Source: a virus (Duplodnaviria > Caudoviricetes). From it: DNA of 64,000 nucleotides. The position numbers and the translations under genes were made by a program. Of this stretch, positions 1 to 59,876 are shown one piece after another. The notes under the pieces were generated by a model, which saw only the letters and a list, made by a program, of their open reading frames with translations, ran no database searches and was not told the DNA's origin. Within the stretch, counting starts at the first letter, position 1, and each line of letters begins with the position of its first letter. The stretch lies in the IMG/VR virus record IMGVR_UViG_3300046786_000293, positions 256,001 through 320,000 of that record; one strand, given 5' to 3'.

Positions 1-229
1 CAAAGATGCAGACCACACACGTTATAACTTAAACTACGACTATGATAGACAAGAAGCCGCTAAAGCATTGGCTAATGATATGAGCAATGCTCGTAAACCC
101 GATTCAGGTCCAGAGCGTGACGACGCTGTAAAGATTATTCGCTATATGCAACAGAATAGATTGCATACTATTTTAGATTTTGTTAACCACATTGCAGCAA
201 AGTGGAAGTCTATCCAGCAAAAGACTTAA
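1..229 (+). CDS. 3' end of a hypothetical protein (partial, runs off the left edge); only plus-strand gene in the window
   Basis: Open frame from position 2 (KDADHTRYNL...KWKSIQQKT) to TAA at 227-229, converging on the DegT gene. Confidence 0.6.
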   Translation, partial: KDADHTRYNLNYDYDRQEAAKALANDMSNARKPDSGPERDDAVKIIRYMQQNRLHTILDFVNHIAAKWKSIQQKT

Positions 230-39387: not shown

Positions 39388-42069
39388 TTATTCCCAACTA
39401 AACAAAGAATCAAATGTTGTTTTAATATCGGTACTTTCGGCTATTTTCCACTCAAGTACCCCTAACAAGTTCTCTACCTTTTGATCTACGATGCCAGCTT
39501 CCATTAAATCTTGATCGAATGGCAAATCTTTGAACCATTGTGGTATATGTGTTTCGTCTGTAGGATAACCTACAGATGTATAACCTAATGGATTATCTCG
39601 TAGTTTACACACAATAGTTTTCATACCGTCAACGATCTGCATACTGTAATTGTCGCTATGCATACGGCGTAGACTGTTCCAGTTCATTGCCGCACGAACG
39701 TGTCCGGGCATATTAGCTTTGCCTAGCCGTTGTTCGTCAGCAGTATACTTGGTCAAATTATTAACACGCTTAGGTGTGCCCTTTTCCCATGCAGGTCTCT
39801 TTTGAAACTCTAGTTTAAAGTTGCGTACCTTCTCGATAACACTTTCACGTTCTGCACCTGTTAGTACATCTAATAGAATCTCACTTAAAAAGTCCTGTAC
39901 AACCTTTGGAGTATCACTGCGCTTCAAGTCCAAGCCCATAGCTTTTACTTTACCTGGTTTGCCACCGATATCTTGACGTTTTCCTTCTTTGTCAATAATA
40001 AGAACCGCATAACGTTTCTTTTTAATAAACAATCCCTTACTGGCAACAAGCTCTCGGCCGCCTTTGATAATAGCACCATTTTGTCGGGGACAATGAAATG
40101 CCTTTTCCATAAATCCTGGGAACGATTCATTTACTTGATCTGCAATAGTATCATAGAGTTGAATACAAGTGTCATTATTCCATTCCATGCGACCTGCTTC
40201 AATATCTGCTTTGAGTGCAGGATAAGCACTAAAATAAACAGAGTCAGTATCACCATAGATAATTGCATCGCCCACATGATCATATGTACCATGAATACAT
40301 TCGTTAACAAAACTATCCATATGCTTGGCAATACTGCGGCCAGTTAGTGTAGTCGATTGACCAATTCTGTGATCAAAGAAACGACAGCCTGGATTTAGAA
40401 TAGCACCATACAAACTGTTCAAGTTAATCTTTTTAACTAACTGACGTTTATCCCAATATTCCTGATCCTCGGGAGTTGTGGACTCTTTAAGTTTGGCCTG
40501 CATCTGCTTACGTTCAGCATACCAACGTTCCAACAAGCCTGGAACAATACCTTTACGTTCATTGGTAAAGATAGTACCGTTGGCACTCAATACCCACGAT
40601 TTGTTGCTATCGAATATAATACGCCAAACATCTGCGGCGCTGACTACATCGCTAGTACCATCTGCTTCCCAGTCGATAGTAATCTCTGTTCCTACATCTC
40701 CACGCATTACTGCCTCATATTCTAAACTGGCAAACAAACCTTCCCACGCCGCGGCAAAACTCATACCTTGTGCCATACGGTCGGCAATGAGTTTGTCAGT
40801 CATTATAGGTCTTAGTTGTCCGACAATTGTTTCTGGTCCCATGTTAAGGGCACGAATAGCCGAGGGATAGAGTGAGTTAATGTCAATGGCTCCAATGTCT
40901 CTGTGCATTCCTTTTTTGGGATGAGCAACGTAGGCACCTGCGGCCTGCGTTTCGCTGGGCCCGTCATCGTCTGTGGGCTCGATTCTTGCTTTGCGGTTAG
41001 GTACGACCAATCCTTGACTGTGTGCTTCATTGATAATTGCCTGTTCAGTGGTTGCTACGGCCCCCATTGTTGTCTGCAATAACACCGTGTTATCGTGAGC
41101 AATGGTATTTGCCAAATCTAAGAAACGAAGTTTCTTATCCAGTTTCGCAATCAAGCGAGTATCTTGTCTGTTGTATTCTAAGAACTTTTCGAAGTCTTTG
41201 TTATACAGTTGATCCAATGTACCTTCATAAGGAGTCTTGCGCTCGTCTAGTTCGTATTCCCCGATGGCATCCAAACTATAACTGTGACGTTCTTCATAGG
41301 TATACTTACGATACAGTTGCATATAGTCCATATGGACACGACCAATCAAGTCGAATGTAATGTTTGTTGCACCATATCGTGCAAACTCACGCTGTTTAGG
41401 AAACTGTCCCCACAAGCACAAACGACGAGTGTCGTCTTTACTTAGTACCCGGGTAATACGTCCAATAGTATACGGAATATCGTAGCCTTCACTATTCCAG
41501 CCAGTTACAATATCTGCATCATCAATTAAATTTAAGAATGTATCTAATAGATCTTCTTCCCGTTCAAAAATATAGCAGTCAGTATGTTTACGTGAAATTT
41601 CCTCCGCAGTTTCCCACGACATCGACTTTGGGGGGATAGCCAAGGTGACCAGTTTATCCAGCCAGTCTAAGTATACCGAAATAGCAGTAATATTATTAAA
41701 TGGATCGGTGGTAGGAGCGAATCCTTTGACAGGGTCAAAGTTCGCCTCGATGTCGAAAAATGCTGTTTGTAACCGAGGCGGTTCTGCACCGAGATAGTTT
41801 TCTTCGAGACAGCGAAATACTGGCTTAAAGTCACTTTCCCACAGTCTTTTGTTACCCTGGATACGAATCTCTTTCTGAAATTCTTTGCCGTTGCGAGTGG
41901 CAAATCTTGAAACGGGAGTTCCATAGATAGTGCGATGTTTGCCCTTGGGGTCATCGTAATAGAATATGTAATTGGCAGGATATTCCTTATATTCTCTAAT
42001 GCCGTTTACACGTTCTACAACATGAATACGATCACGTTGCTTGTCAAATAGTGCGTCTACGTAACTCAA
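39388..42069 (-). CDS. Family B DNA polymerase (T4 gp43-like)
   Basis: Exo FDIE, GWNSEGYD, YNRQD; Pol DINSLYPS, KINLNSLYG, YGDTDS, KKRY. Confidence 0.97.
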   Translation of the reverse strand: MSYVDALFDKQRDRIHVVERVNGIREYKEYPANYIFYYDDPKGKHRTIYGTPVSRFATRNGKEFQKEIRIQGNKRLWESDFKPVFRCLEENYLGAEPPRLQTAFFDIEANFDPVKGFAPTTDPFNNITAISVYLDWLDKLVTLAIPPKSMSWETAEEISRKHTDCYIFEREEDLLDTFLNLIDDADIVTGWNSEGYDIPYTIGRITRVLSKDDTRRLCLWGQFPKQREFARYGATNITFDLIGRVHMDYMQLYRKYTYEERHSYSLDAIGEYELDERKTPYEGTLDQLYNKDFEKFLEYNRQDTRLIAKLDKKLRFLDLANTIAHDNTVLLQTTMGAVATTEQAIINEAHSQGLVVPNRKARIEPTDDDGPSETQAAGAYVAHPKKGMHRDIGAIDINSLYPSAIRALNMGPETIVGQLRPIMTDKLIADRMAQGMSFAAAWEGLFASLEYEAVMRGDVGTEITIDWEADGTSDVVSAADVWRIIFDSNKSWVLSANGTIFTNERKGIVPGLLERWYAERKQMQAKLKESTTPEDQEYWDKRQLVKKINLNSLYGAILNPGCRFFDHRIGQSTTLTGRSIAKHMDSFVNECIHGTYDHVGDAIIYGDTDSVYFSAYPALKADIEAGRMEWNNDTCIQLYDTIADQVNESFPGFMEKAFHCPRQNGAIIKGGRELVASKGLFIKKKRYAVLIIDKEGKRQDIGGKPGKVKAMGLDLKRSDTPKVVQDFLSEILLDVLTGAERESVIEKVRNFKLEFQKRPAWEKGTPKRVNNLTKYTADEQRLGKANMPGHVRAAMNWNSLRRMHSDNYSMQIVDGMKTIVCKLRDNPLGYTSVGYPTDETHIPQWFKDLPFDQDLMEAGIVDQKVENLLGVLEWKIAESTDIKTTFDSLFSWE

Positions 42070-44852: not shown

Positions 44853-45287
44853 TTATTTTAAACTAGAACGTAACATCCATGCATGTTTGTCATGAGCGTC
44901 CATGCGCTCTGCCAAGAAGTTGCTTAAGCCATGCTTGCCTTCGCGTTCGGATAAGTCATAGACTAGTTTTAGTACTCTAACAATTTTTCCGCTGTCTTCT
45001 AATAGTTCCGCTACCATTGCTTCTTTTGGTGGAACTTGTGTTTCGTCGTCGATTTGACTTAGCATACTTAGACGACTAAAACTAGCAGGAGTATAACTGC
45101 CTAACTTACGAATATTCTCTCCAAATGGATCGATGCTGTCCAACACTTCTTCGTATATCTTACCAAATAAATCATGATATTCTAAAAAGTCAGATCCTTC
45201 TACGTTGAAGTGGAAGAAATGTGCTTTTAGATAAAATGCAAATTCTGTACTGTATGCAATTTTCATTGCTTTAATTAGTTCATCCAT
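44853..45287 (-). CDS. dps: Dps / ferritin-like DNA protection protein
   Basis: KAHFFHFNVEG..F...HDLF...Y......D..GE.IR; HDKHAWML. Confidence 0.92.
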   Translation of the reverse strand: MDELIKAMKIAYSTEFAFYLKAHFFHFNVEGSDFLEYHDLFGKIYEEVLDSIDPFGENIRKLGSYTPASFSRLSMLSQIDDETQVPPKEAMVAELLEDSGKIVRVLKLVYDLSEREGKHGLSNFLAERMDAHDKHAWMLRSSLK

Positions 45288-47265
45288 TTTTCTTTACCTT
45301 CTTAACTCGTTGTTGTCCACGTGGTACGCTACCTACAGGGCTAACGAAATTATCATCGCCTATTGTAGCCGCACTAACTGTATGCTTACTTAAATCATAT
45401 TCAGTAAATGTGCGTGTTGCTTCTAAATATAATTTTTTAAAGTTTTGGTTGCTTTCACTTAGGAACCAACCATTATTGTCTTTTCTAAGTCCGAACTTGT
45501 TGCGTAGTTCTCCTGCGCTGGTTCCGGATATTTTAAAATAGCGACGACTTTCGCTGATACTATTGTTTGTTCTTTGTAGTCTTTCCAGTACATCTTGTAC
45601 AGCCAGATCTAAGTCGCTCATGCTGCCGATTTCGCCGTATTTGTCTACAACGTCCATAATAGCGTCTCCGACTACTTCGTGTCCAAATTGACGTACAACA
45701 TCCCCCTCTATTTGATTTAGTGCCTTGAAAATAGCATCGGCTAAATCTAGTCCGCTGATTGTTTCGCTAATTGGAATGTTTTGAATATCTAATATAGCCG
45801 CTGGCTTAGGACCACCACCGCCCGAAGTTGGTGGCTTAGGTGGAGTACGTTGTCCGCTTGGTGGTACATACACTTGTTGTGGTGGATATGTTCTGGTAGG
45901 TTGTGTGCTTAGTACAGGAGTAACAGGACCTATACGTTGTTCCGCCATGCTTTGCTTCTGACGCCACACACTGGAATTCTTTAGTCTGCTGGTTGAACCC
46001 CAAGCAATGCTACGACCGTTGAATACAAAAATCAATTTGTTCAACACCACAGCAGGGCTATGTGGATCTGAGCCAAACTCGCCAGAAACATCACCTATCT
46101 TACGAGCACCCTTGGACTCCAAGAACTTCCAAAACTTTTCAACTGCTTTGGCTTTATGCCACTTGGGTTGATCCTCTGGTTTCAAATCACGGTCAATAAA
46201 AATGTATCCTGGGTCTTTGTATCGTGAGCCATCACCACGAGTCCACATTCTCATACCGGGATTTTTATAATCCATTGGATAGTATGGGCTCCCGCTCATT
46301 TGTTTATTAAATTCAGAGATTAGGCCTCTAATAAAATCAATGGTAGGAGATTCGGTTATAGTATCTTCCGCCACACCTGAATCAGGTCTTGCTGTCATCA
46401 TGGCACCGGGATCAATATTGCCCTTGTTGTCATAACGATGCTGAACACCCTTCTTACCTGCTTTGACTAGTCTTTCCATTGCGGCTTTGGCATCACGATA
46501 GTTATCGTGTGTGGTGGTCTTGATCCAATCACCACTTGAATTGCGATAGCCTACATGAATTTTGCCTTCCGCCACACCTTTAACATCCCAGGTTTTATGG
46601 CACTGGTGACATTCCTTCTCGCCATCACTGTATGTTTTTATGTCGGTGGAATGACAACGCGGGCACTGGTATTGTTTGCCCAGACGACCTTCGTTGCCAT
46701 CATCGCGGATTGGGTGTTCTTCGTCATCGTAGCCTTCCGCCACACCTTGACTTTTACTACGATTAAAATCTCTTGTTGCTTGACGACTTCTGGCGCGGGT
46801 GCTCGGTTCTTTGTATGCTCTCCAACGATCAACCTTTGTGCCACACTTGGTGCAATGTAATACACCATCCATGTCATCGTGGATGCTGGTTTCTTGATAC
46901 TTGCCCTTCTTACACTTTTCGCAAGTCTGACCAGTCATATCTTTTTGTGTAGAGCCTTCCTCCACACCTTGCTTGGTTCTAATAATCTCACGGTCAAGGG
47001 CTCTGATCTCTGATTTCAAATCAACTAATCTTAACTCACCATTTTCTAATGCTCGTTTAATCCCCAATTTAGTATCAACTAAATCAGTAACTGACATATT
47101 TTGAATCTGACTTAGTAGGTCTGCATAATACCCAGCATAATAATCATTGGTATCGTCATCGTCTAAACCTTCAGACACACCTTCATTTAAATGTGTGCAA
47201 TTGCAAGGCGTTTGCCCGCACACATTACACATATCTCTACTTTCAAAAAAATCAAATAATTTCAT
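45280..47265 (-). CDS. Modular protein with repeated GV(A/S/E)E linkers and Cys-pair (Zn-ribbon) modules; likely internal head protein
   Basis: Starts MKLFDFFE; five GVxE linkers; CxxC pairs (CNVC..C.C, CEKC..CTKC, CPRC..CHQC). Confidence 0.75.
   Translation of the reverse strand: MKLFDFFESRDMCNVCGQTPCNCTHLNEGVSEGLDDDDTNDYYAGYYADLLSQIQNMSVTDLVDTKLGIKRALENGELRLVDLKSEIRALDREIIRTKQGVEEGSTQKDMTGQTCEKCKKGKYQETSIHDDMDGVLHCTKCGTKVDRWRAYKEPSTRARSRQATRDFNRSKSQGVAEGYDDEEHPIRDDGNEGRLGKQYQCPRCHSTDIKTYSDGEKECHQCHKTWDVKGVAEGKIHVGYRNSSGDWIKTTTHDNYRDAKAAMERLVKAGKKGVQHRYDNKGNIDPGAMMTARPDSGVAEDTITESPTIDFIRGLISEFNKQMSGSPYYPMDYKNPGMRMWTRGDGSRYKDPGYIFIDRDLKPEDQPKWHKAKAVEKFWKFLESKGARKIGDVSGEFGSDPHSPAVVLNKLIFVFNGRSIAWGSTSRLKNSSVWRQKQSMAEQRIGPVTPVLSTQPTRTYPPQQVYVPPSGQRTPPKPPTSGGGGPKPAAILDIQNIPISETISGLDLADAIFKALNQIEGDVVRQFGHEVVGDAIMDVVDKYGEIGSMSDLDLAVQDVLERLQRTNNSISESRRYFKISGTSAGELRNKFGLRKDNNGWFLSESNQNFKKLYLEATRTFTEYDLSKHTVSAATIGDDNFVSPVGSVPRGQQRVKKVKKNG
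46366..47181 (-). repeat. Dispersed 12-nt repeat GGTGTGGCGGAA (Gly-Val-Ala-Glu)
   Basis: Exact copies at 46366, 46567 and 46735; variants at 46957 and 47170; also 51651 (exact) and 51846 (variant). Confidence 0.85.
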
Positions 47266-47266
47266 A

Positions 47267-49558
47267 TTACTTTCCTTGCCTTGCCAACATTGCTGCATTA
47301 CTTAGTGCTGTTTTTAGAGCAGGTGCAGATTGCGGACTTTCTGCAGCCTTGGCAATTAACGGTGTTAGTGCGCTCATAGACATAGATTCAGGCGAAGTTA
47401 ATGGTTTATTATCGCTTATTTTTGTAACTGCACTGCTTAATGTATTTGTATCTACTTTTGGACCTAGTACACTAGATAAACCGCTCATCGTGCTTTTGGC
47501 AGTAGATACATCTTGCATTTGGTCTAATTGTTGTTGTTTTACAGCAGCAGGATCTTGTTGTACGCTTGTTTGGCTTGTGATTTGTATATCTGGATCCTGT
47601 TTATTAACTGCGGGATCTTCTACTTCATTTGTCTTTTTGCGATCTAACGCACGTAATTTTTGTGCAAGTTTGGCTATATCTACTGGACCATGTTCACGTT
47701 CTTGTTTTTGTACAAGTTTTTTAACACGAGCAATCATGTTATCAAAATCATCTGGATCATAGCGGCTTGCTATTAAATTGTCATCTTTGTTTTCTTTCAT
47801 TCCTGAACGATACCCTGTGTGTTGTACGTGTACTGGATCATTGGGGAGAAATCCTAAATTATACTTATCACCCTTTGGATCATTTTTTGCCAACCAATTG
47901 CGTAATGCCGCAATTTGGTCTGCTCTTGCGTCAATTGCATGGGCTTTGTGGCTTTCGGGATCTTTAGGAGGAGCCCCGTAAACACCAGGTCTTCCTGCTT
48001 TATAATCTCGATGAAGTTTTTCCTGTTCTGCGGCTGTTCTTGCTGAGCTAGTAACGGTTATTGGTATACCCGAATCTTTGCTGGCACGTTCTAAATTAGA
48101 TCTGAATGTTGAATCTAATTTTGTATAACGATCAGCTTGTTTAGCATCGGCGAATCCGAAGTGACTAGGAGAAGTATCTAATGCTTCGATGTTTTTTGGA
48201 TTTTTTACGTGCCAACGACCGTCGTCTGACTTGTAAGTACCGTCAGATTGTTTAGTGAAACTTACGTTAATATTTTTTGTTGGATCTGAAGGATCCTTTA
48301 CATCTCTGAATAACTTGGTTCCTGGAAGATGTCCAGTAATCTTAGTAGGAGTTTGTTGATCTGCAGGAGTAGATGCAGCAGCCGAGGCCTGGCTTGGGAC
48401 TGTTTGAGTAGAAGCGGGTGCAGGTGCGGCTGTTTTAGTTGCCGGTTGAGTAGCAGTAGGCGTAGGTGCAGAACTTGCGGCGGTTTTGTTAACAACTCGT
48501 TCACCGGGTGACAAAGAATCTGCCGTGCTCACCGAAGGAGTTGGTGTTGTACTTCTTGTAGTCGGTGCCGCCGAAGTGTTTGTTCGTGTAGATGTTGCAG
48601 GAGTTTGAGCATTGGGGTCAACGCTACTACCACCAATTTCACCTCTTCGTACTTTTGCAGCAATTTTTTCTAATGTGTCCCCGGGACTAACTATATGCTT
48701 TTCGGTGCTTCCAGGTAATTTAATTTCTTGCCCGGGATAAATTTTATTAGGATTCTTGATAGCTGGATTACTCTTCCAAACTTCTTGCCAACTTCCTGGA
48801 GCAGGATTTTTTGGCATTTGTGGAATAACTGGAGCAGCAGGTTTGGTTGGTGCTGGCGCGGTTGCAGTTGTGGCTGGGGGCAAAGGTTGTGAAGTAATTT
48901 TAACGGGCTCTGCGACAGGTTTAACTTCTGGACCAGGTACAACGGTGCTAGGTGCAGGTTGTGCTACAGGTTGTTGTGCTACGGTAGTTCCTGGTTCGCG
49001 TGCTATACTTTGATCTCTGTCCGGACTTACTAGATCTGCTGCCTTTGCTACATTAATTTGACCACCAGAGCCAACTGGTGCGCCTGAGCCACTTCTAACT
49101 GGCTCACCGGTACTTGTTTGTACTACAGGGGGATTTTTATCTAAGTATGTTCTTATTTCATCTTGTGTAGCAGGTTGCATACCCATACGTTGACGAACGA
49201 TAGGATCTATTCCTGTATATGTAGGAGTCTTACTGGCATTCCATTGTTTATCTAATTCTGCTTTAGGTAAATCAGGACCACTGGAGGCTCTTAACGCTGC
49301 CCAATCATTTGCTGTATTATTGGTTTCTTCTTTAAACTTATTAAATTTTTCTAATAAGGACCACTCGGTGACTTTTTCTTTAGCAGTATTGTGTAGATCT
49401 TTTATTATACTTTCTTCGCAGCCACCGACCATTTTAGATTTGGCTTTGCTAGCAGGATCAGTACCTTTCCAGTAGCCGGGAAATTTAGGACCTGTAGATT
49501 TTTTAGCAGCCTTTTCCATGCTATCTACTGCTTCTAAAAGTTTACGCATATTGGTCAT
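47267..49558 (-). CDS. Pro/Thr-rich protein with LysM-like and M15-type peptidase domains
   Basis: NPAIKNPNKIYPGQEIKLP and HIVSPGDTLEKIA (LysM halves); SSARTAAEQ, SHKAHAID, DPVHVQ (M15 Zn peptidase). Confidence 0.8.
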   Translation of the reverse strand: MTNMRKLLEAVDSMEKAAKKSTGPKFPGYWKGTDPASKAKSKMVGGCEESIIKDLHNTAKEKVTEWSLLEKFNKFKEETNNTANDWAALRASSGPDLPKAELDKQWNASKTPTYTGIDPIVRQRMGMQPATQDEIRTYLDKNPPVVQTSTGEPVRSGSGAPVGSGGQINVAKAADLVSPDRDQSIAREPGTTVAQQPVAQPAPSTVVPGPEVKPVAEPVKITSQPLPPATTATAPAPTKPAAPVIPQMPKNPAPGSWQEVWKSNPAIKNPNKIYPGQEIKLPGSTEKHIVSPGDTLEKIAAKVRRGEIGGSSVDPNAQTPATSTRTNTSAAPTTRSTTPTPSVSTADSLSPGERVVNKTAASSAPTPTATQPATKTAAPAPASTQTVPSQASAAASTPADQQTPTKITGHLPGTKLFRDVKDPSDPTKNINVSFTKQSDGTYKSDDGRWHVKNPKNIEALDTSPSHFGFADAKQADRYTKLDSTFRSNLERASKDSGIPITVTSSARTAAEQEKLHRDYKAGRPGVYGAPPKDPESHKAHAIDARADQIAALRNWLAKNDPKGDKYNLGFLPNDPVHVQHTGYRSGMKENKDDNLIASRYDPDDFDNMIARVKKLVQKQEREHGPVDIAKLAQKLRALDRKKTNEVEDPAVNKQDPDIQITSQTSVQQDPAAVKQQQLDQMQDVSTAKSTMSGLSSVLGPKVDTNTLSSAVTKISDNKPLTSPESMSMSALTPLIAKAAESPQSAPALKTALSNAAMLARQGK

Positions 49559-51525
49559 TTTATTTTTCTTTTATCGTACGGTACTTTAAAGTCATTGATA
49601 AATTCTTTAAATTCTTTAACAGCTCCAGGTATACCTCCAGGAGTTATTCTATGTAAACGTTCAATCCAGTCGTCATTTTTTGAACTACCAGATCCTACTC
49701 CTGGCCCAGTACCTGTTCCTACACCGCCACCGGTACCTCCGCCGGACCCACTGCTTTGTTGTGAATCTTTTTCTTTATCTTTACCAGACGCTGCGGGCGC
49801 AAAGGTAGGCTCGCTTGCTGGTTTTTGCTGTGGTGTTGCTTGTGGCTTAACAGGCTCAGGTTGCGGCTTTACTTGAGGTTTAGTAGGCTCAGGTTGCGGT
49901 TTTACTGGTTCAGGCTCAACGGCAATGTCTGCGGGTTTTGTAACTGGAGGCAAATCTTCTGGTCTCCATATTTCGACAGGCATCGGTACAGTTTGTGATG
50001 TTGGTTCTGCGGCAGGTTCTTGATCTACTTTGCCTTGCCCTTGTCCTTCTTTACCGCCGCCGCCTGTAGTCATTGAAGCACCCACAGGCACAGCCGCTGG
50101 GCTCCACATTTTTTTATCGCCTTGCATTTTGGGCGGTAAAGGTTCGTCAGCTCTTGACGTCGATGTTGGAGGTTTAATTGGCTGGTCATCCCCTGGTCTT
50201 GTTTGCATTAATTCTTGATCTCGGCGACGGGCCTGTGCTTGTGTGCGTGCGGGATTAATTCGAATTGGATTGGCTATAATAGGAGCATTGGCTGAGGTTG
50301 TTGCTCCCGGTGCAACTTGAGAAGGCTCATTAACAACTTTTAATCTAGGTTTTGGCCCTGCAGGAACTTCTGCACCTTGTGGCATAGCTGAAGGTTGTCC
50401 CGCTCTTTGATAAGCAGGAACTTCAACATTTGCTGGTGTGCGAGGCACAGGTCCCGGAGTAACTCTTGGTCCACTTACTACAGCCCCGCCAGCTCCGCCT
50501 GGCGGAAACTCTAAAGGTATTGTAGTTGGTTTAAAAGGACCTTTGGTTTGTTCTTTTAACTTTCGGCTGCTAATAGGAAAGTTTGTACTTAAAAATTCTT
50601 CAAATTCTTCAGCAACCTTTTTAGTTGCTTGCTCTTTGATCGCTCCAGGTATACCACCCGGTGTTATTCTATGTAAACGTTCAATCCAATCCCCGTCGGG
50701 AGTTTTATAATATGTTGGTTCTTGTTGTGCAACTGCTACCGGCGCCGCAGCTAATTGCCCAGGTCTACCCGGACCTGATGGTTCGTTAGGTCTTGTTGCT
50801 AGTTGTGTCTGCGGGGCAAGTTCGGGCTCGGTGTCGGGCTGCGATGATGTTGCTATACCACGCTGTTGTAATAAATTTAATTCTGCTTTTAAATTGGGAT
50901 CATCGGGAGTCTTTTCGAGTTCACGTCGGACGTCCTTGGCATACTGTTGATCAGCAAATGATGGTTTGTTCCCACCGCCTGCGGCAGTAGAATACACGTT
51001 TGAGTATTCACTTCCTGCGCCAACTTTTACACGAGGTTGTGGCTTTGTTAAAGTAGATACTGTGGCAGATTGTTTTGGTATGCTAGGTTCATTTGCTGCA
51101 ACCGGTGCAGCCTTTGCAAATTTAGTGTCCGGTCCAGTACCGCCAATTACACCCAACGGTTGCGGCGGAGTTGTACCAGCAGCCTTTCGCATATAGGCCG
51201 GTTCTTTAGCACCTTTTGGATCTAACCATGGTTGCTTAGGTGTATATGCTGGAGTTTCTGGATCTATAGAGGGCGGTAATGTAAGTGGTAATGATTTTTG
51301 CCCAGGTGCAGGTGTTGTTGCCCCGGTAGCAGGCTTCTGTGTTGGCTCGACAGGTTTTGTTAATTGCTGACCCATCATATTGAATGCTTTATTACCGGCT
51401 GGTATGTTAGTTAATGTACCTATGGGTAACTTTTGTTGAGAGGGAAAATCATAGACTTTTTTCGCCGCCTGTCCTTGTTCGGCAAGTTTATCTAATGACT
51501 CTAACAAACGACGGATGTCTGACAT
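49555..51525 (-). CDS. Pro/Gly-rich low-complexity modular protein; likely internal head protein
   Basis: Starts MSDIRRLLE; duplicated DWIERLHRITPGGIPGAxKE; KPQPEP repeats. Confidence 0.75.
   Translation of the reverse strand: MSDIRRLLESLDKLAEQGQAAKKVYDFPSQQKLPIGTLTNIPAGNKAFNMMGQQLTKPVEPTQKPATGATTPAPGQKSLPLTLPPSIDPETPAYTPKQPWLDPKGAKEPAYMRKAAGTTPPQPLGVIGGTGPDTKFAKAAPVAANEPSIPKQSATVSTLTKPQPRVKVGAGSEYSNVYSTAAGGGNKPSFADQQYAKDVRRELEKTPDDPNLKAELNLLQQRGIATSSQPDTEPELAPQTQLATRPNEPSGPGRPGQLAAAPVAVAQQEPTYYKTPDGDWIERLHRITPGGIPGAIKEQATKKVAEEFEEFLSTNFPISSRKLKEQTKGPFKPTTIPLEFPPGGAGGAVVSGPRVTPGPVPRTPANVEVPAYQRAGQPSAMPQGAEVPAGPKPRLKVVNEPSQVAPGATTSANAPIIANPIRINPARTQAQARRRDQELMQTRPGDDQPIKPPTSTSRADEPLPPKMQGDKKMWSPAAVPVGASMTTGGGGKEGQGQGKVDQEPAAEPTSQTVPMPVEIWRPEDLPPVTKPADIAVEPEPVKPQPEPTKPQVKPQPEPVKPQATPQQKPASEPTFAPAASGKDKEKDSQQSSGSGGGTGGGVGTGTGPGVGSGSSKNDDWIERLHRITPGGIPGAVKEFKEFINDFKVPYDKRKIK
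49622..50691 (-). repeat. About 50-nt direct repeat encoding DWIERLHRITPGGIPGA
   Basis: Copies at 49622-49671 and 50642-50691, differing at a few synonymous positions. Confidence 0.9.
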
Positions 51526-52295
51526 TACTTTGCCTTTGTTTGCTTTTGCTTGTATGTACCGCCAAACAACGAACCTACTTTGGCTTTGTTCTTTGCTGGG
51601 GGATTCACTACAGTGGCCACGCTGCCTGCTGACATTTCATTCACTGTTGCTTCCGCCACACCTTTCCAGTCAGTTTCGCCGCCCAAATCATCAATATACA
51701 TTGCTTGTTTGATAATGTTCAGTAGATACTTCTTTGCTTCTGGTGTAGGTGCCATCTTAGCATATTGCTTTGCTGTGTAGTCGTCACCATTCTCTAACGC
51801 ATCTCTAACATCTTGCTCAAGGCGTGTTGTGTCAGGATCCCATCCTTCTGCCACACCTTGTTCACGCTCTGCCTGACGCTTTGCCCAACGCTCTTTGTTG
51901 CGCTGAACTTGTTGAGGACTTGCTTTCTTTTCTTTGCTTAGGTCACGATGCAGTGCTTTACCTAGTGCGCTAGTATGCGGATTCTTTTCAGACTCCGCCA
52001 CAGGCATAGCATCGCCAACTACGGCAACTACTTCTTCAGCAGGACCACCGCTCATTAATTGATATTCTAAGTGTTCACGGACGGTGTTTAGATAGTCTGC
52101 AGCCAGGGTAATTTTACTGCTTACCCAACCTTCTAAGCCTTGTTGTTCACTAACATGGCGTAGTAGTTTGTGTAATGCAATTGCGTCTTCTGCAGCATGA
52201 TACAGTTCTTTTCGAGCCATTTGCACTTCATGATCTAAGTGCATTTCGTGTGCATCTTCGGCAATGCCTTCATTTAAAAAATCTAAACTTTTCAT
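51525..52295 (-). CDS. Modular protein with GVAE linkers; likely internal head protein
   Basis: Starts MKSLDFLNEGIAE; LEGWVSSKITLAADYL module; two GVAE linkers; TAAATA at 52319-52324. Confidence 0.75.
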   Translation of the reverse strand: MKSLDFLNEGIAEDAHEMHLDHEVQMARKELYHAAEDAIALHKLLRHVSEQQGLEGWVSSKITLAADYLNTVREHLEYQLMSGGPAEEVVAVVGDAMPVAESEKNPHTSALGKALHRDLSKEKKASPQQVQRNKERWAKRQAEREQGVAEGWDPDTTRLEQDVRDALENGDDYTAKQYAKMAPTPEAKKYLLNIIKQAMYIDDLGGETDWKGVAEATVNEMSAGSVATVVNPPAKNKAKVGSLFGGTYKQKQTKAK

Positions 52296-52321
52296 AGTAT
52301 GTTTCCGTGATTATAGTATAT

Positions 52322-52630
52322 TTATTCGCTGATAACGAATCGACCTTTTGATGGGGATTCCACAATAATATCGTCTACCATTAAGTTGGTGAAGTAAAAC
52401 CCTCTAAAACTTGGATCTAGTGATTCTAATTTGACTTCATGATTCCCTGCAGTTAAATTAACCCATATGTTTTCTTTTACAAATTGTCCATTAGTTGTAG
52501 TAGGAGGTTTTGCATTAGACCAAATATATGTACGTTCAGTAATTAAATCACCGTCTAAATAAATTCTATAAACTGGATTTTCGTTGCCGTGTTTATGACA
52601 AAAAACATCTATATTGATTTTATATTCTTT
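52322..52630 (-). CDS. Hypothetical beta-rich protein
   Basis: MKEYKINIDV...YRIYLDGDLITERTY (probable start inside the tracked ORF). Confidence 0.65.
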   Translation of the reverse strand, partial: KEYKINIDVFCHKHGNENPVYRIYLDGDLITERTYIWSNAKPPTTTNGQFVKENIWVNLTAGNHEVKLESLDPSFRGFYFTNLMVDDIIVESPSKGRFVISE

Positions 52631-55236
52631 CATTTTTCTCTGCCTCGACGCATATTTGCTTGCCAATGTGCTAATTGTTTTTTACGGGGACTAGCAGTTT
52701 TTGAACGTGTAATTTTATCTAGAGTAGACAAACTTGCTTTTTTGGGAATACCATGTCTTGCTGAATCGCCTTTGTCTTGGGGATTACGACCGTCAGCAAA
52801 GTTTTCTGCCACGTTGAATGTTGGATCTACTTTTTGACGCGGCATATTTTTAGGCTGATTAGGATCAACGGGATCTATATCTGTAGTAGTTAGTCCAGTT
52901 TTTTCTAAATCTTTAATATACTTGTGTTCTTCTTCTTCGCTACCAAAAGAAAACATGGTGCTAGGAGGTCCCTTTCCAAAGTCATGTTTGCCTAACCCTT
53001 TTAAGTTACTAATATGCTGTCCTAGCTTATACCAATCATAAACGTCCGATACATCTACTCTGACAGATCCTTGAGGCATAGTGGGTTTAAATTCTGGGCC
53101 GTAGGGAGTGTCGTTTGGGTGTCTATCTTCGTTCTTCTTTCTGCCAGCACAGTGAGCTTTTTGACTAAAGCCTTTGGGATCGGAGCAATTAATAGAACTC
53201 TTATATTCTTTGCTCCACGATTCGTCTAACTCTAACGGCTTAGATTTAATAGCGTTGGGATACTTCTTGTTGAAGTGCCGCATAATAATACCAGCGACCC
53301 AATGTGCTTCGTTTTCAATTGGACTTCCAGTATCACCTGCACCGTCATACATTTTACCTTGTTCGTATTGTTTGAAGTGTACCATTTCATGTGCTAGTGT
53401 TCTTAGAATATCTACAGGGTGCCTATCGGCAATGCCAAGATATATTTTTTCTTCTTCATTAACAAAACGACCGAATGTTGCTTGCCCGTCGTTGGATTTG
53501 ATGTGCGGTTGTAAAACAATATGTGGGATTTCTTTAAGTTTAAGTTCTTTCATTGCCAAGGGCATAAACTCTTTAATCATCGCCATCATATCTTCTTCAG
53601 TAACACTACGATTATTTTTTGCTTCTTCTTTAACAACATTGCCTAAAAATGTACGGGCAAATGTTTTACACATTTTTACAATAGCAGGATTACGTGTTTG
53701 CATAACATGAAATGTTTTATTCATGTCTTCTTCTTGTGTAGGGTCTTTATATCCGCAATATACTTTGTGGCAGTCTGTATCGTTAATGATCTCTGTGCAA
53801 CTGTCTCCGTAACGATCGTCCATCGGGTGACAGCATGGACTTAGAGTTGTAAGAATAATACTGCCTGCAGGTACACGACCGTGCTCTGCTTCGTAGTTCA
53901 TTATTGCGGCACGTTCGGCATGTATACGTTTGTCCTTACCGTCGTCGAAGTAGTTAATACCAAAGGCGAAATTATTATCAGGATCAAGTACACAGGCTGC
54001 AACCATGCCAAATGCATCGGCGTTTAGTTTTTGTCCCTCTACTACCATTTCGCATAAGTTAACTAGGATATGATCCAATTTGTCAAAGTTTTTAATTTCA
54101 AAATCTTCGGGGTTTATTCGCGCTGAGAAATCTTCTGCCAGTCTAAAATCACGTAGCATATTTTTTGGTGTGCGAGGCTTAACATCTTTAGTAATGCTCA
54201 TCGAATATCTTGGGTCTTTGGCCATCTTCTTATTCTTAGCCACAACACCGACTCCGGCAGCATCCTCTGACATTTCTTGCTTTAATGCACGAATAACATC
54301 TCCTGCGAGCTGAGTTAAACTACGTTGGGGTCCTGCTTGAAAAACTTTTTGGGCTAAGTTTTCAACATACTCGTTGCCAAATTTTTCAAATATACCAGGT
54401 TGCATTTCACGCAAAAATTCTAATATCTGTGCAGTTCTATCTTGGTCGAATTCTTTCCAATCGTGATAATGTTTTTCGTCTGTTTCTTCTATGTCAGCAA
54501 TTTCATGAAATACCCTTGCACCGCTAATAGGACTAGAACTATAGTTACTGTCAACTTGTCCTATGTCTTCACTGACTGCGGCAGGAATCTTATTAAAAAT
54601 ATGTACTAGTTCAGACGTAGCACGGCCATATAATCCTGCCAAAAATTCTTTTGAGGATTCCGGATCATTCCGTACCATATTCCACAAATTACGACATTCT
54701 GTGCCGTGACTCACATCATATGTTTTGCCTTTGATGTTTACCGCTTTTTTAATTTCGGGGATAACAATCACATAACCGTGTTGGTCGGCAGTCATCGGGG
54801 CGTGACTTTCATCCCATGTTTTGTAATAGCTTGCGCTGCCTGCAGGCTTGATTACGTTTCCGTCTTTGTCTTTTTGATCACGCTTTGTAAATGTATCGGG
54901 ATTTAAGCGATCTTTATCGGGGGCACCTACAGCAGTAACAAATATAGTACTGGAAGGATCAAATCCTGCAGGTAGCTTGTACATTTGATTTGTTTCAATG
55001 ATGCGATCACCGGGCACGCCGGCTGCTGTCATTAATTGGTATTTGTCGGAAAAGTTAAATGGACTTTTAGCGCTAGACTGGTCATTACTAGTTAAAATGT
55101 AGACGCTGTCGCGACCAAATTGCTTTTGTAATTTTGCAAAAACTCCGGCGTGCCCTTGGTGAAAAGGCTGAAAACGTCCAGGATAAGTTACAACAACTTG
55201 TGGCTTACCAGCCTCATATAATTCGTGTGCGTACAT
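52630..55236 (-). CDS. Multi-enzyme protein: HxGH nucleotidyltransferase + cytidine-deaminase-like + zincin metallopeptidase + small C-terminal modules
   Basis: YPGRFQPFHQGH; IHAERAAI...TLSPC...C; RTLAHEMVH; modules separated by (V/L/M)-x-E sites. Confidence 0.85.
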   Translation of the reverse strand: MYAHELYEAGKPQVVVTYPGRFQPFHQGHAGVFAKLQKQFGRDSVYILTSNDQSSAKSPFNFSDKYQLMTAAGVPGDRIIETNQMYKLPAGFDPSSTIFVTAVGAPDKDRLNPDTFTKRDQKDKDGNVIKPAGSASYYKTWDESHAPMTADQHGYVIVIPEIKKAVNIKGKTYDVSHGTECRNLWNMVRNDPESSKEFLAGLYGRATSELVHIFNKIPAAVSEDIGQVDSNYSSSPISGARVFHEIADIEETDEKHYHDWKEFDQDRTAQILEFLREMQPGIFEKFGNEYVENLAQKVFQAGPQRSLTQLAGDVIRALKQEMSEDAAGVGVVAKNKKMAKDPRYSMSITKDVKPRTPKNMLRDFRLAEDFSARINPEDFEIKNFDKLDHILVNLCEMVVEGQKLNADAFGMVAACVLDPDNNFAFGINYFDDGKDKRIHAERAAIMNYEAEHGRVPAGSIILTTLSPCCHPMDDRYGDSCTEIINDTDCHKVYCGYKDPTQEEDMNKTFHVMQTRNPAIVKMCKTFARTFLGNVVKEEAKNNRSVTEEDMMAMIKEFMPLAMKELKLKEIPHIVLQPHIKSNDGQATFGRFVNEEEKIYLGIADRHPVDILRTLAHEMVHFKQYEQGKMYDGAGDTGSPIENEAHWVAGIIMRHFNKKYPNAIKSKPLELDESWSKEYKSSINCSDPKGFSQKAHCAGRKKNEDRHPNDTPYGPEFKPTMPQGSVRVDVSDVYDWYKLGQHISNLKGLGKHDFGKGPPSTMFSFGSEEEEHKYIKDLEKTGLTTTDIDPVDPNQPKNMPRQKVDPTFNVAENFADGRNPQDKGDSARHGIPKKASLSTLDKITRSKTASPRKKQLAHWQANMRRGREK

Positions 55237-55265
55237 ACTACAATTTTAGGTTATTGTAGTATTTA
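55235..55265 (-). promoter_or_regulatory. Late promoter TAAATA overlapping a 10-bp hairpin that covers the start codon
   Basis: Minus strand reads TAAATACTACAAT-AACCTAAA-ATTGTAGTAT-G; perfect arms at 55235-55244 and 55253-55262. Confidence 0.7.
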
Positions 55266-55269
55266 GCGA

Positions 55270-56869: not shown

Positions 56870-57628
56870 TTATAGATCGGGATTACTTAGTTTATAAATT
56901 CCGGCAATGCATTCGGGTGCTATTAGATTAATAAAAGTTACAATTTTTTCATCTTTGGCATAAAAATATCCGCCGGGGAACCACATATGATTGCTACCTA
57001 AATGTTTTACCAAACTTTTAGTAAGGCATACTTCGTCGTCGCCAAGATTGTACAAATAGTCTAATAGAGTCCGTTTAGTTTCGACGTCTTTAATTTTATT
57101 TTCCCTAAGCATAATTTTATATTGAAATTCGGGATAACTCTTAAAGATAATCTCTCCTCGATTTAATATTTCTATACTTTTTTCATTTGCAGGAGAATGT
57201 ATTTCTTCAACTCTTTCGGGATAGTTTTTCACTAATAAACAGTACAATAGTTCTTGATCATTGCAATAAACTGATAAATTAGGTTCCTCTAATCTAAGTT
57301 TAATTGAACCTTTTAGTGCATTTCTAATAGATATCCAATATTCAAGTTGATCTATTCTTGCATGAACTTTCAAATATTCTACACGTCTTTGAGTATAACT
57401 ACTAGACCAAGATCCAATTCTATAATTAGCAGTTGACTCCAATAAGTTTATTCGTTGATTGAGTAGATGTTCTACTCCTTTATACAGAATTTTATTGTCG
57501 TTTATAATTCTACACCCAGGTGTATGAACTACTGCTTTGTATAGATATTGATTAAAAAATTTCTTTTTTGTCTCTATACATTTAACAGTTGGATTTAATT
57601 GCGTCCAGAACGATGTATCCATTTTCAT
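56870..57628 (-). CDS. Hypothetical protein
   Basis: 252 aa; ends YFYAKDEKIVTFINL, similar to the array-family motif. Confidence 0.7.
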   Translation of the reverse strand: MKMDTSFWTQLNPTVKCIETKKKFFNQYLYKAVVHTPGCRIINDNKILYKGVEHLLNQRINLLESTANYRIGSWSSSYTQRRVEYLKVHARIDQLEYWISIRNALKGSIKLRLEEPNLSVYCNDQELLYCLLVKNYPERVEEIHSPANEKSIEILNRGEIIFKSYPEFQYKIMLRENKIKDVETKRTLLDYLYNLGDDEVCLTKSLVKHLGSNHMWFPGGYFYAKDEKIVTFINLIAPECIAGIYKLSNPDL

Positions 57629-59876
57629 CCGTTAACGATTGTGTAGGGAAAACTATGTATTCGTTTTCTTTAATTTCAAATTCTAATTTATCTTTATAGT
57701 CAACATTAACTAAACAGTTAGCAACATTTTCAAATAGAATCTTTTTACTCAAAGGCACTTTAATTAGTTCGTTAATCTTTCGACCCAACGGACGAGCACC
57801 CATTTTACTATCATACCCTTGACTAATGATATAATCTGTAGCTGCTTCTGACAAAGTAACACGTATACGTTTATCGCTAAGTAGTTCATTCATTTCACTA
57901 ACAAACTTATAAACAATCTTACGAACATTAACAGAATCTAGTTTGTTAAACTTGATAATACCATCTAATCGATTACGAAACTCTGGCTTAAAGAAATCTT
58001 TAACAGCCTTGTCATCTTCACCTGTCTTCTCTAGACTACGACCAAAACCGATACTGTTGCGTTCGTTGTCAGCGGCTCCTAAGTTACTTGTTAGAATAAC
58101 TACAGCATTACGGCAATCTGCCTTCTTGCCGTTGCTACTAGTAATCATGCCCTCATCCATTAAACTAAGAAGCAAATTGCTAACATCCGGGTGGGCTTTT
58201 TCAATCTCGTCGAAAAGAATAATACAATTAGGATTCTTTTCAACATCACTAATAAGCAATCCGCCGCCTAAATTACCATCATCATAGCCGATATACCCGG
58301 GGGGAGCGCCAATCAGTTTTGCAACCGAGTGGCGTTCTTGGTACTCACTCATGTCATATCTTAATAGTTTCATCCCGAGATTCTCTGCCAGCAACTTTGC
58401 TAGTTCAGTTTTACCTGTGCCAGTTGGACCTAAGAATAGGAATGATCCAACCGGTTTATTCAGTGCTTTAAGGCCAGCACGTGACACATAAATTTTATCC
58501 AGCACATCTATTACAGCCTGATCTTGTCCGTAAAGTTTACCTTTAATATTACCTTCAAGGTCTCCTAGATTTTTAACTGCATCAGTGTCTAATTGTTCTA
58601 CTGGAATTTTAGTAAACTTACTTAACGAATCGATAATATGACTCTTACGAACCACAAACCCTGTAGTGGAAATTTTTAGTTTAGCAGCCGCAGTATCAAT
58701 TAAATCAATGGCTTTGTCGGGTAATCTCTTATCTGTTTGATAACGAACACTAAGATCCACTGAGGCATCGATTGCTTCGTCGCTGATATCGCCGCCATGA
58801 AATTCTTCAAAATACTCTTTAAGTCCTTTAAGAATCTGTTTTGCAACTTCTGGTGTCGGTTCCTCTACAGTCATACGATAGAAGCGACGCATCAATGCAC
58901 GGTCCTTTTCGAAGCTTTGACTGTATTCTTCCCAAGTGGTGCTAGCAATAACTTTAACGCGGCCCTTAGTTAATGCAGGCTTAATAATATTAGCAAAGTC
59001 TGGCCCGCTTTGGCTACCACTACCAGCGCCTCGCATAGTATGTGCTTCGTCGATAAACAAAATGGCTTTACCTTTGGCATTTAAAGCCTTGATAATTTCT
59101 TTAATTTTTTCTTCAAAGTCTCCGCGATATTTACTACCTGCAAGAATACTGCTAATATCTAAATTATATACTGTGTGATCTTTAAGATATTCAGGTACTT
59201 CACCTTTAGTAATATTAAGGGCAAGTCCTTCTGCAATTGCAGTCTTACCTACACCAGGATCGCCGACCATTAGAACGTTACTCTTATTGCGCTTGGCTAG
59301 TACCTGTGTAATTTCGTCGATTTCGTTATTACGACCAATGATGGGATCAATACGACCTTGTTCTGCTGCATCGTTCAGGTTATCGCAGTATTCTTCTAAA
59401 ATAGTATCTGCTGTGCTTCTGGTTTTCTTTTTAGTTTTGTTTTCTGCAAAATTCTTATTCCAAAAGTTAACAACTTTGGCTCGTTCTAGTCCAAATCTAA
59501 CTAACAGATATCGAGCATAACTCTTATCTTCTGCCATAATACTAAGGAATAAGTCAATAGTTTGCAAGTTTTGTCGTCCACTAAACAGGACTTGTGTAAA
59601 TGCTCTATTAAACACACGTTCTAAACTGTGCGTTTTTTTCGGAACAATGTCGTATCCTTTACTAATTAGAAATGTTTGAGTAGTTAAATAATCATCTATT
59701 TCTTTTATAAGTAGATCTACATCACAACCAAAGTTGACTAGTATTTCTTTAAAGGACTCATTAGTAACCATTGCATGAAGCAAATGTTCTAACGTCACAT
59801 ATTCGTGGTTTTTATTGGCTGCATATTGTGTAGCCGATTCGATCATTAGATCAATCTCTGGACTTGTTTGTAGCAT
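57582..59876 (-). CDS. clpA: ClpA/ClpB family AAA+ chaperone (ClpA-like, no middle domain)
   Basis: Clp N-domain (HEYVTLEHLL), GDPGVGKT/FIDE, GPTGTGKT/LFDE, FKPEFRNRLD, GARPL. Confidence 0.92.
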   Translation of the reverse strand: MLQTSPEIDLMIESATQYAANKNHEYVTLEHLLHAMVTNESFKEILVNFGCDVDLLIKEIDDYLTTQTFLISKGYDIVPKKTHSLERVFNRAFTQVLFSGRQNLQTIDLFLSIMAEDKSYARYLLVRFGLERAKVVNFWNKNFAENKTKKKTRSTADTILEEYCDNLNDAAEQGRIDPIIGRNNEIDEITQVLAKRNKSNVLMVGDPGVGKTAIAEGLALNITKGEVPEYLKDHTVYNLDISSILAGSKYRGDFEEKIKEIIKALNAKGKAILFIDEAHTMRGAGSGSQSGPDFANIIKPALTKGRVKVIASTTWEEYSQSFEKDRALMRRFYRMTVEEPTPEVAKQILKGLKEYFEEFHGGDISDEAIDASVDLSVRYQTDKRLPDKAIDLIDTAAAKLKISTTGFVVRKSHIIDSLSKFTKIPVEQLDTDAVKNLGDLEGNIKGKLYGQDQAVIDVLDKIYVSRAGLKALNKPVGSFLFLGPTGTGKTELAKLLAENLGMKLLRYDMSEYQERHSVAKLIGAPPGYIGYDDGNLGGGLLISDVEKNPNCIILFDEIEKAHPDVSNLLLSLMDEGMITSSNGKKADCRNAVVILTSNLGAADNERNSIGFGRSLEKTGEDDKAVKDFFKPEFRNRLDGIIKFNKLDSVNVRKIVYKFVSEMNELLSDKRIRVTLSEAATDYIISQGYDSKMGARPLGRKINELIKVPLSKKILFENVANCLVNVDYKDKLEFEIKENEYIVFPTQSLTDENGYIVLDAIKSNC

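Follow-up and report, generated by a model that had tools for sequence, protein, structure and literature searches.

We analyzed a 64,000-bp window, bases 256001 to 320000 of the 338,510-bp virus record IMGVR_UViG_3300046786_000293 (estimated completeness, 97%), which contains a block of five genes on the minus strand, here called g868, g256, g656, g763, and g672 (Table 1). Bare coordinates refer to the window, and "genome" coordinates refer to the whole record. A first-pass annotation of the window had proposed that all five genes encode polyproteins that are packed into the phage head, cut at short sites composed of a hydrophobic residue, any residue, and Glu (h-x-E), and delivered with the DNA.

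Five genes with short leaders ending in Glu

Each of the five proteins begins with a short leader that ends in h-x-E, like the T4 sequence MKTYQEFIAE. The leaders quoted in the first-pass annotation are all present, and judged from their sequences they are almost certainly T4-like. T4 IPII and IPIII begin with MKTYQEFIAE/A (T4 record NC_000866; the slash follows the terminal Glu). Residues 4 and 7 of this capsid targeting sequence (CTS) serve for targeting and residues 8 and 10 for processing (PMC9026906). In T4, gp21 cuts this leader off behind its Glu (PMC9026906, PMC5694885), and proteases of the gp21 type cut after Glu (PMC5694885). Asp in place of the P1 Glu prevents processing in T4 and leaves targeting intact (PMC9026906). 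The leader of g672 starts at an internal Met codon at 47265, just past the stop codon of g763 and preceded by AAGGAAAG. Because of this good ribosome-binding sequence and the preceding g763 stop, we consider this Met to be the likelier start of g672.

The genes had been described as large, adjacent, and associated with late promoters. They are adjacent save for a small open reading frame (ORF) after g868, and "large" does not suit g256. The small ORF has no cargo-type leader, is conserved in 6 related loci, and has no Pfam or PHROG match. The exact T4 late promoter TATAAATA has a single minus-strand copy in the window (56867), which is not upstream of any of the five genes, and a looser motif, NTAAATA, was used in its place. 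By consensus match only, motifs of the (A/C)TAAATA(C/T) class lie 24 to 34 nt upstream of the capsid gene and of many tail genes of this phage. As motifs of this class also precede g868 and g256, the block looks like two late transcription units. No such motif precedes the other three genes: the g656 start overlaps the g256 stop, g763 and g656 overlap by ATGA, and g656, g763, and g672 are predicted to be translationally coupled.

Table 1. Genes, modules, predicted joints, and neighboring features of the five-gene block. Positions are window coordinates unless residues or genome coordinates are indicated; slashes in leaders follow Glu residues.
Feature	Position	Strand	Description
g868	52630-55236	-	868 aa, leader MYAHELYE/A
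g868 nucleotidyltransferase module, HxGH type	residues ~9-223		Pfam CTP_transf_like 18-82, E 7e-8, cytidylyltransferase-like
g868 other modules	residues 224-324, 325-368, 704-811		bounded by predicted joints
g868 cytidine/dCMP deaminase-like module	residues 369-547		Pfam dCMP_cyt_deam_1 406-495, E 2e-10
g868 HExxH zincin-like module	residues 548-672		weak Pfam metallopeptidase matches, E ~0.04, below cut-off
g868 Cys-rich module	residues 673-703		WSxKYKxSINC
g868 basic C-terminal module	residues 812-868		NFADG
g868 predicted joints	AVSE223, EMSE324, RLAE368, SVTE547, ELDE672, KKNE703, NVAE811		from breakpoint histogram
Small ORF between g868 and g256	52322-52666	-	103-114 aa, probable start MKEYK at 52633
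g256	51525-52295	-	256 aa, leader MKSLDFLNE/GIAE/D
g256 modules	residues 14-101, 102-150 (basic), 151-215, 216-256 (basic)		predicted joints PVAE101, GVAE150, GVAE215
g656	49555-51525	-	656 aa, leader MSDIRRLLE/S
g763	47267-49558	-	763 aa, leader M(TN)MRKLLE/A
g763 LysM	residues ~256-302		Pfam E 8e-7
g763 VanY/M15-like peptidoglycan peptidase (lead)	residues ~445-607		ESM Atlas feature and structure neighbors are VanY/Peptidase_M15
g672	45280-47265 (ORF to 47298)	-	661 aa from Met12 of 672-aa ORF, leader MKLFDFFE/S
g672 modules			~nine modules, including three Cys4 zinc-ribbon-like mini-modules and a 142-aa alpha/beta module (301-442)
g672 predicted joints	GVSE32, GVEE103, GVAE177, GVAE233, GVAE300, SMAE442, PISE501, SISE572		
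Linker 13-mer, canonical (GVAE)	46365-46377, 46566-46578, 46734-46746, 51650-51662	-	GGTGTGGCGGAAG
Linker 13-mer, one mismatch	51845-51857, 46956-46968 (GVEE)	-	
Linker 13-mer, two mismatches (GVSE)	47169-47181	-	
Late-type promoter-like motif CTAAATA	55260-55266	-	30 nt upstream of g868 start, consensus match only
Late-type promoter-like motif ATAAATA	52319-52325	-	30 nt upstream of g256 start, consensus match only
Further putative polyprotein, outside the window	genome 139301-140686	-	461 aa, leader MKVNDVITE; joints SVAE, GLAE, IIAE, NLAE, VIAE, SVNE
Double AAA+ ClpA/ClpB-like ATPase	57582-59876	-	764 aa, PHROG 4871 "ATP-dependent protease," E 1e-239
Dps/ferritin-like DNA-binding protein	44853-45287	-	Pfam Ferritin E 2e-17, PHROG 3636
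Family B DNA polymerase, downstream of block	39388-42069	-	PHROG 262, E 8e-190

Modular organization of g868, g256, and g672

The g868, g256, and g672 proteins are almost certainly modular, shuffled strings of independently occurring modules that are linked by joints. The description of the block as strings of unrelated small modules therefore holds for these three proteins and not for g656 and g763, which belong to collinear families with conserved ends. When g672 was compared with 1.84 billion representatives by HMMER, 634 proteins were obtained at E ≤ 1e-3, counted as one representative per 50%-identity cluster. The matches cover discrete segments of g672 (residues 26 to 106, 95 to 157, 196 to 237, 229 to 302, 297 to 442, and 498 to 659), and these segments sit anywhere in proteins of 60 to 1,395 residues, stand-alone proteins included. 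The module at residues 301 to 442 (window 45949-46374) is the most widespread, with dozens of stand-alone and embedded copies. It is predicted to fold alone (pLDDT, 87.4; pTM, 0.82; terminal residues of low confidence), and a fold search of the PDB and of AlphaFold DB clusters gave no credible match. Modules of g868 are found as separate small ORFs in cyanophages, and modules 2 and 3 of g256 occur in other orders in four related loci (L004, L006, L007, and L008). In the g868 ortholog of locus L015, GLAE/DAAG replaces EMSE/DAAG, and extra modules are inserted between GVAE joints. Related viral contigs likewise carry the same modules in different orders and combinations, with joints such as GVAE, GVSE, GMAE, DVAE, GLAE, and similar sequences. 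Acidic and basic modules alternate, and the C-terminal module is strongly basic in all three strings. By Pfam, no peptidase module was found in g256 or g672.

The boundaries of these modules coincide with h-x-E sequences. Internal homology breakpoints lie at most 6 residues from (L/I/V/M)-x-E in 65% of cases in g672 and 53% in g868, with 24% expected; the corresponding P values are inflated because the matches are related. In both proteins, the breakpoints cluster at the predicted joints listed in Table 1. Module gain and loss in orthologs thus falls at x-x-E linkers, in the very comparison that the first-pass annotation had proposed. It had named boundaries unrelated to these motifs as evidence against its view, and this is not what we found, since the breakpoints pile up at h-x-E joints.

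The (V/L/I/M)-x-E sites as such had also been taken as distinctive, which is not borne out: the loose motif occurs 16.5 times per 1000 residues in the five proteins versus 15.1 in the other 426 ORFs. The tetrapeptide GVAE is found five times in g672 and g256 and is absent from the other 105,231 residues of the proteome. Of the 634 g672 relatives, the best 149, each less than 50% identical to the others, comprise 69,229 residues, and GVAE is their commonest 4-mer, with 210 copies. The joint consensus in these 149 proteins is K-(E/K/Q)-Q-G-V-A-E-G, with variable flanks.

Joints that depart from this consensus keep the h-x-E pattern. Over eight boundaries, h-x-E was present within alignment slop in 85 of 116 noncanonical junctions, and we estimate that roughly 12% of random 10-residue windows contain it. 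Upstream of the 142-residue module of g672, relatives that are 35 to 95% identical have ALEE, NVDE, DVAE, SMTE, VAAE, CVSE, EMTE, GLTE, VISE, KVDE, DVNE, or SVEE. At the position of SMAE442, four relatives have QGVAE, and the g672 sequence is three bases off the canonical joint DNA (AGT ATG GCA versus GGT GTG GCG). The residues kept at noncanonical joints are P3 and P1, which match CTS positions 8 and 10 for T4 processing. 2A-like skipping or self-cleavage at the joint was also considered and was rejected, as the joint resembles no such motif.

Conservation of the joint DNA

The joint is conserved in its DNA sequence as well. The 13-mer GGTGTGGCGGAAG, with one mismatch at most, is present in seven copies in the 338.5-kb genome, all in frame within polyprotein genes, with approximately 0.4 copies expected according to our calculation. 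The codons at 58 GVAE joints of related loci were GGT (49 joints), GTG (45), GCG (45), and GAA (56). Two of these are rare in this genome, where 12% of Val residues are encoded by GTG and 8% of Ala residues by GCG. In locus L008, an inserted module is flanked on both sides by a duplicated joint. The fixation of silent sites and the use of rare codons suggest that the joint DNA is a recombination handle as well, and the joint appears to be constrained at both the protein and the DNA level. This second role of the linker was not foreseen in the first-pass annotation, and it limits the support for the reading given there.

Interchange of leaders and internal joints

Some modules follow a leader in one protein and an internal joint in another. 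The AFDQPY module comes after a leader in this genome (MFINEVITE/AFDQPY; genome 254910) and after the internal joint NVNE/AFDQPY in loci L030 and L051. Similarly, the WSxKYKxSINC module is preceded by a leader in L025 (MRAYEFINE/EWS) and in protein P0099, and by an internal joint in g868 (LELDE/SWS) and in the SSM2_108 protein of cyanophage S-SM2 (FRE/SWS). The interchangeability of leader Glu and linker Glu provides the strongest sequence argument that the internal joints may be cut like the leader. The leaders were also considered as a product of A/U-rich codon bias at the 5′ end, which was rejected, as modules start exactly after leader Glu and linker Glu alike.

A strict leader pattern was found in 37 of 103 independent relatives of at least 250 residues versus 14 of the 431 proteins of this genome, several of which could be additional cargo proteins. 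Cargo-type leaders also begin approximately ten more proteins at scattered genome positions, such as 11192, 66433, 70759, 126599, 138928, 254375, and 254910.

The collinear families of g656 and g763

Scans of viral contigs for g763 and g656 yielded no loci, and protein searches then showed that both belong to collinear families. The two proteins are basic (pI 9.3 for each) and rich in Pro, Thr, and Ala, with 15% proline in g656. They have in common a second leader type, MSDI(K/R)(K/R)LLE. Only 5 relatives of g656 were found, all collinear and with an invariant leader. AIKE, listed as a cleavage site in the first-pass annotation, does not qualify, as its Glu is not conserved in distant g656 relatives. 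A 21-residue motif, DWIERLHRITPGGIPGA(I/V)KE, occurs twice in the g656 protein, in the center and close to the C terminus, and the protein also has a long Gly-rich tract (GGGTGGGVGTGTGPGVGSG).

In the 65 relatives of g763, the leader Glu is invariant and the N-terminal (GPKFPGYWKG) and C-terminal regions are conserved. The center of the family is variable, with LysM followed by different cell wall hydrolase modules; in relatives P0154 to P0217, the central hydrolase is exchanged (VanY/M15-like, SLT [PF01464], and others) between conserved ends. Pfam and PDB sequence searches gave no confirmation of an M15 peptidase in g763, and we treat this assignment, which comes from Atlas neighbors, as a lead only for that reason. 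The g763 protein is a candidate virion-borne peptidoglycan hydrolase. We read g656 and g763 as single long head or ejection proteins, not as polyproteins.

Head assembly genes

The prohead protease gene that the first-pass annotation had suggested looking for was located at genome 192276-192914; it encodes a T4-type Peptidase_S77 (92.5 bits). The same genome encodes a gp23-type major capsid protein (Gp23, 328.8 bits), and the head genes are ordered portal, acidic protein, protease, scaffold, capsid. The nearest cultured relatives by capsid protein are Vibrio phage 2.275.O (70%), PA5oct, and jumbo phages of the GAP32 type; on this basis, the phage is classified as a T4-core jumbo phage of the Rak2/PA5oct-like group. 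Each of the five large, module-bearing related contigs tested likewise encodes an S77 protease. In an alignment to mature T4-type gp23, the capsid propeptide has ILE34/N and LAE42/N where the maturation cut of T4 gp23 would fall. As the fixed joint conforms to the cleavage rule of the prohead protease that this phage encodes, g868, g256, and g672 are probably cut into many cargo proteins.

Related proteins in cyanophages

Modules of the block are shared with cyanophage proteins. SSM2_108 of S-SM2 begins with MKTLKQFLKE and ends with the Cys-rich module of g868 (79% identity over 33 residues). SSM2_109, a 708-residue protein of the T4-GC119 cluster, matches g256 at residues 21 to 82, in module 1 (E 1e-5), and the polyprotein at genome 139301-140686 (E 2e-17). 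The S-SM1 protein of the same cluster, SSM1_115, has several modules in common with g672 relatives, with h-x-E before the modules. Both cyanophages carry module strings between their terminase genes (S-SM2, L080, 91376-93927; S-SM1, L083, 98536-100023), and 489 phage records contain T4-GC119 modules, among them podoviruses of Pelagibacter and Prochlorococcus.

T4-GC119 was detected in purified cyanophage virions as a "Structural protein" with 13 peptide counts (Sullivan et al. 2010, Suppl. Table 8, PMC3037559). The ORF table of that study marks T4-GC119 with proteomic data, and the counted virion proteome is that of S-SM1 according to the text of the paper (PMC3037559). By module sharing, this detection supports an association of this class of proteins with virions.

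A proposed role as head cargo

Our preferred explanation, held with moderate confidence, is that the five genes form a late locus of variable content whose products enter the head and accompany the DNA. Packaging of these proteins in virions is likely, and cleavage of the joints by the prohead protease is plausible, with somewhat less assurance. In such a scheme, the leader would attach the precursor to the scaffolding core while the prohead assembles. Once activated, the prohead protease would cleave behind every exposed joint Glu, in the way that gp21 processes the IP, Alt, and scaffold proteins of T4; gp21 itself is active only within the assembled prohead core. The freed modules would stay with the DNA and be ejected into the host; they would comprise the nucleotidyltransferase, the deaminase, the zincin-like domain, the zinc-ribbon mini-proteins, and the basic C-terminal modules. 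The g763 protein (LysM and M15-like peptidase) and g656 would be single long ejected or core proteins that lose their leader only. Finally, the fixed linker DNA would provide microhomology by which modules could be inserted, lost, or swapped without destroying the cut site. All prerequisites of the packaged-cargo reading that can be checked computationally appear to be in place. With respect to the original proposal, the cargo-polyprotein reading is partly supported: it applies to g868, g256, and g672, with their shuffling at joints, the interchange of leaders and joints, and the presence of S77, and it does not extend to g656 and g763.

Several observations weigh against this explanation. Both within modules and elsewhere in the proteome, the loose h-x-E motif occurs at the frequency expected by chance, so that any specificity of cutting would have to derive from exposure. 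The matches counted in the breakpoint statistics are related and not independent, and one recurrent g868 breakpoint, KKNE703, has no hydrophobic residue at P3. Vibrio phage 2.275.O, the closest cultured relative (capsid 70%), has no GVAEG-coding site and is therefore unsuitable as a model. The block lies 110 kb from the head genes, between the ClpA/B-like ATPase and the DNA polymerase; g656 and g763 fall outside the polyprotein scheme; and the cyanophage virion evidence is a matter of module sharing, not orthology, and has no bearing on cleavage. The silent-site fixation of the linker DNA also counts against it, as recombination alone could explain the conservation of the joints.

This last point is at the heart of the main alternative, which we consider unlikely: the proteins would be uncleaved, multidomain ("polyvalent") proteins whose joints are flexible spacers kept by recombination at microhomologies of ~13 to 18 nt, the whole chains acting in the cell or after injection. 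Linker DNA that is fixed at silent positions, uses rare codons, and yields a 13-mer found only in these genes, together with the L008 module inserted with a duplicated linker, fits this alternative, and polyvalent phage proteins packaged unprocessed are known, e.g., the N4 virion RNA polymerase (PMC5512222). However, boundaries without the canonical DNA keep h-x-E (SMAE, DVAE, NVSE, DLAE, PISE, MVYE, and others), a pattern that recombination by itself leaves unexplained. In addition, the same module can be preceded by a leader Glu or by a linker Glu, and the protease family encoded by this genome cuts such sites in T4.

Two further alternatives were considered. The proteins might be prohead core or filler proteins that are loaded by their leaders and cut at their joints, with the pieces exiting like scaffold fragments after serving head assembly or head size. 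T4 gp22, gp67, and gp68 are indeed cut to short fragments that leave the head (PMC5694885), jumbo heads need much internal mass, and an alternation of acidic and basic modules would suit such a function. We regard it as improbable in view of the enzyme folds among the modules (nucleotidyltransferase, deaminase, M15-like peptidase), the conservation of stand-alone domains, the extreme turnover of content, typical of host interaction genes, and the dedicated scaffold gene beside the protease. More improbable still is that they are cytoplasmic polyproteins, cut by another protease such as the HExxH module of g868 or a host enzyme, or are unpackaged proteins, and act late in the infected cell. The HExxH module has weak metallopeptidase matches (E ~0.04), embedded peptidases are the proposed processing route for polyvalent proteins (PMC5512222), and the position of the block outside the head gene cluster is consistent with such a role. 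Yet g256, g672, and most relatives lack a peptidase module, the joint fits the rule of a Glu-specific serine protease and no known zincin rule, and the leaders match the T4 capsid-targeting design.

If the head cargo explanation is taken together with the conservation of the joint DNA, a broader proposal can be made, which we put forward tentatively. The six-residue, 18-base joint (Q-G-V-A-E-G, CAAGGTGTGGCGGAAGG) might be both a prohead protease cut site and a microhomology for swapping modules among aquatic T4-type phages. With the portable capsid-targeting leader, it would form a combinatorial system that loads, cuts, and injects hundreds of small effector modules from a shared pool, whose members also serve as free-standing genes in cyanophages and podophages.

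Comparison with known systems

The closest parallel is found in T4, whose IPI, IPII, IPIII, and Alt proteins have a capsid targeting sequence and are processed by gp21 (Mullaney & Black 1996, as reviewed in PMC9026906, PMC3012670). The T4 internal-protein family is defined by its leader, not by homology. Both systems have a short N-terminal leader with hydrophobic positions and a terminal h-x-Glu, a T4-type S77 protease, variable cargo behind a conserved leader, and cargo genes outside the head cluster. No Pfam or PHROG match to internal head protein or Alt families was found for the proteins of the block, which have no sequence homology to the IPs. The T4 cargo consists of single proteins cut once or twice, whereas here up to approximately nine unrelated modules are chained, with fixed joint DNA and shuffling across hundreds of protein clusters, and with packaging and cleavage that are predicted.

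In polyvalent proteins, a single polypeptide carries many biochemically disparate domains, which are predicted to enter the host along with the DNA and to be released through embedded peptidases (Iyer et al. 2017, PMC5512222). The g868 protein resembles them in its combination of nucleotidyltransferase, deaminase, and zincin-like domains. In contrast, the model for polyvalent proteins includes no conserved interdomain joint and no capsid-targeting leader (PMC5512222), whereas most of the strings described here have no peptidase and have joints that fit a prohead protease. None of the polyvalent signature domains (MuF, ART, DNA methylase, ArdC, ParB-like, and others) was detected by Pfam.

In phiKZ, 201phi2-1, and SPN3US, head-internal proteins, some of which have several sites, are cut by the prohead protease after Glu and ejected (PMC5694885, PMC7411985, PMC10052503). 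These are also jumbo phages with many head-internal proteins and Glu cleavage at short motifs. Their motif is (S/A/G)-x-E or A-x-E, and mostly long propeptides are removed from conserved paralog families; in the present phage, of another lineage, the joints have V, L, I, or M at P3, and shuffled modules are linked by one fixed joint. No PHROG match to the inner-body paralog families of phiKZ and SPN3US was found. The T4-GC119 and T4-GC1207 proteins of cyanophages have modules in common with g868, g256, and the polyprotein at genome 139301-140686, and h-x-E before their modules. They differ in that they have no canonical GVAEG joint and are encoded between terminase genes, and they carry only hypothetical or structural annotation. 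Our literature searches turned up no account of GVAE-type joints or of a prohead protease that cleaves phage cargo polyproteins.

If the joints are cut, these phages would deliver a large, rapidly reshuffled set of premade proteins, and the T4 internal-protein paradigm would extend to polyproteins. The modules would then be promising ground for finding new anti-defense and host takeover activities. Head cargo of uncultured T4-type phages could be recognized by a simple sequence rule, a leader plus h-x-E joints, and the arrangement would offer a natural design for bringing several proteins into a capsid from one gene. A dual constraint on the joint would be unusual in that a protease site and a recombination handle would be selected together.

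Genomic neighborhood of the block

A megablast comparison of the block with 50,697 phage records gave no match. The family B DNA polymerase gene downstream of the block places the cargo locus in a replication gene neighborhood, not beside the head genes. The gene of the ClpA/ClpB-like ATPase lies two genes upstream of the block, and 28 related loci show it in synteny with homologs of g868. At the other end, the Dps/ferritin-like gene overlaps the end of g672 by 8 nt in the same direction, is syntenic in 26 related loci, and may belong to the same late transcript as g672.

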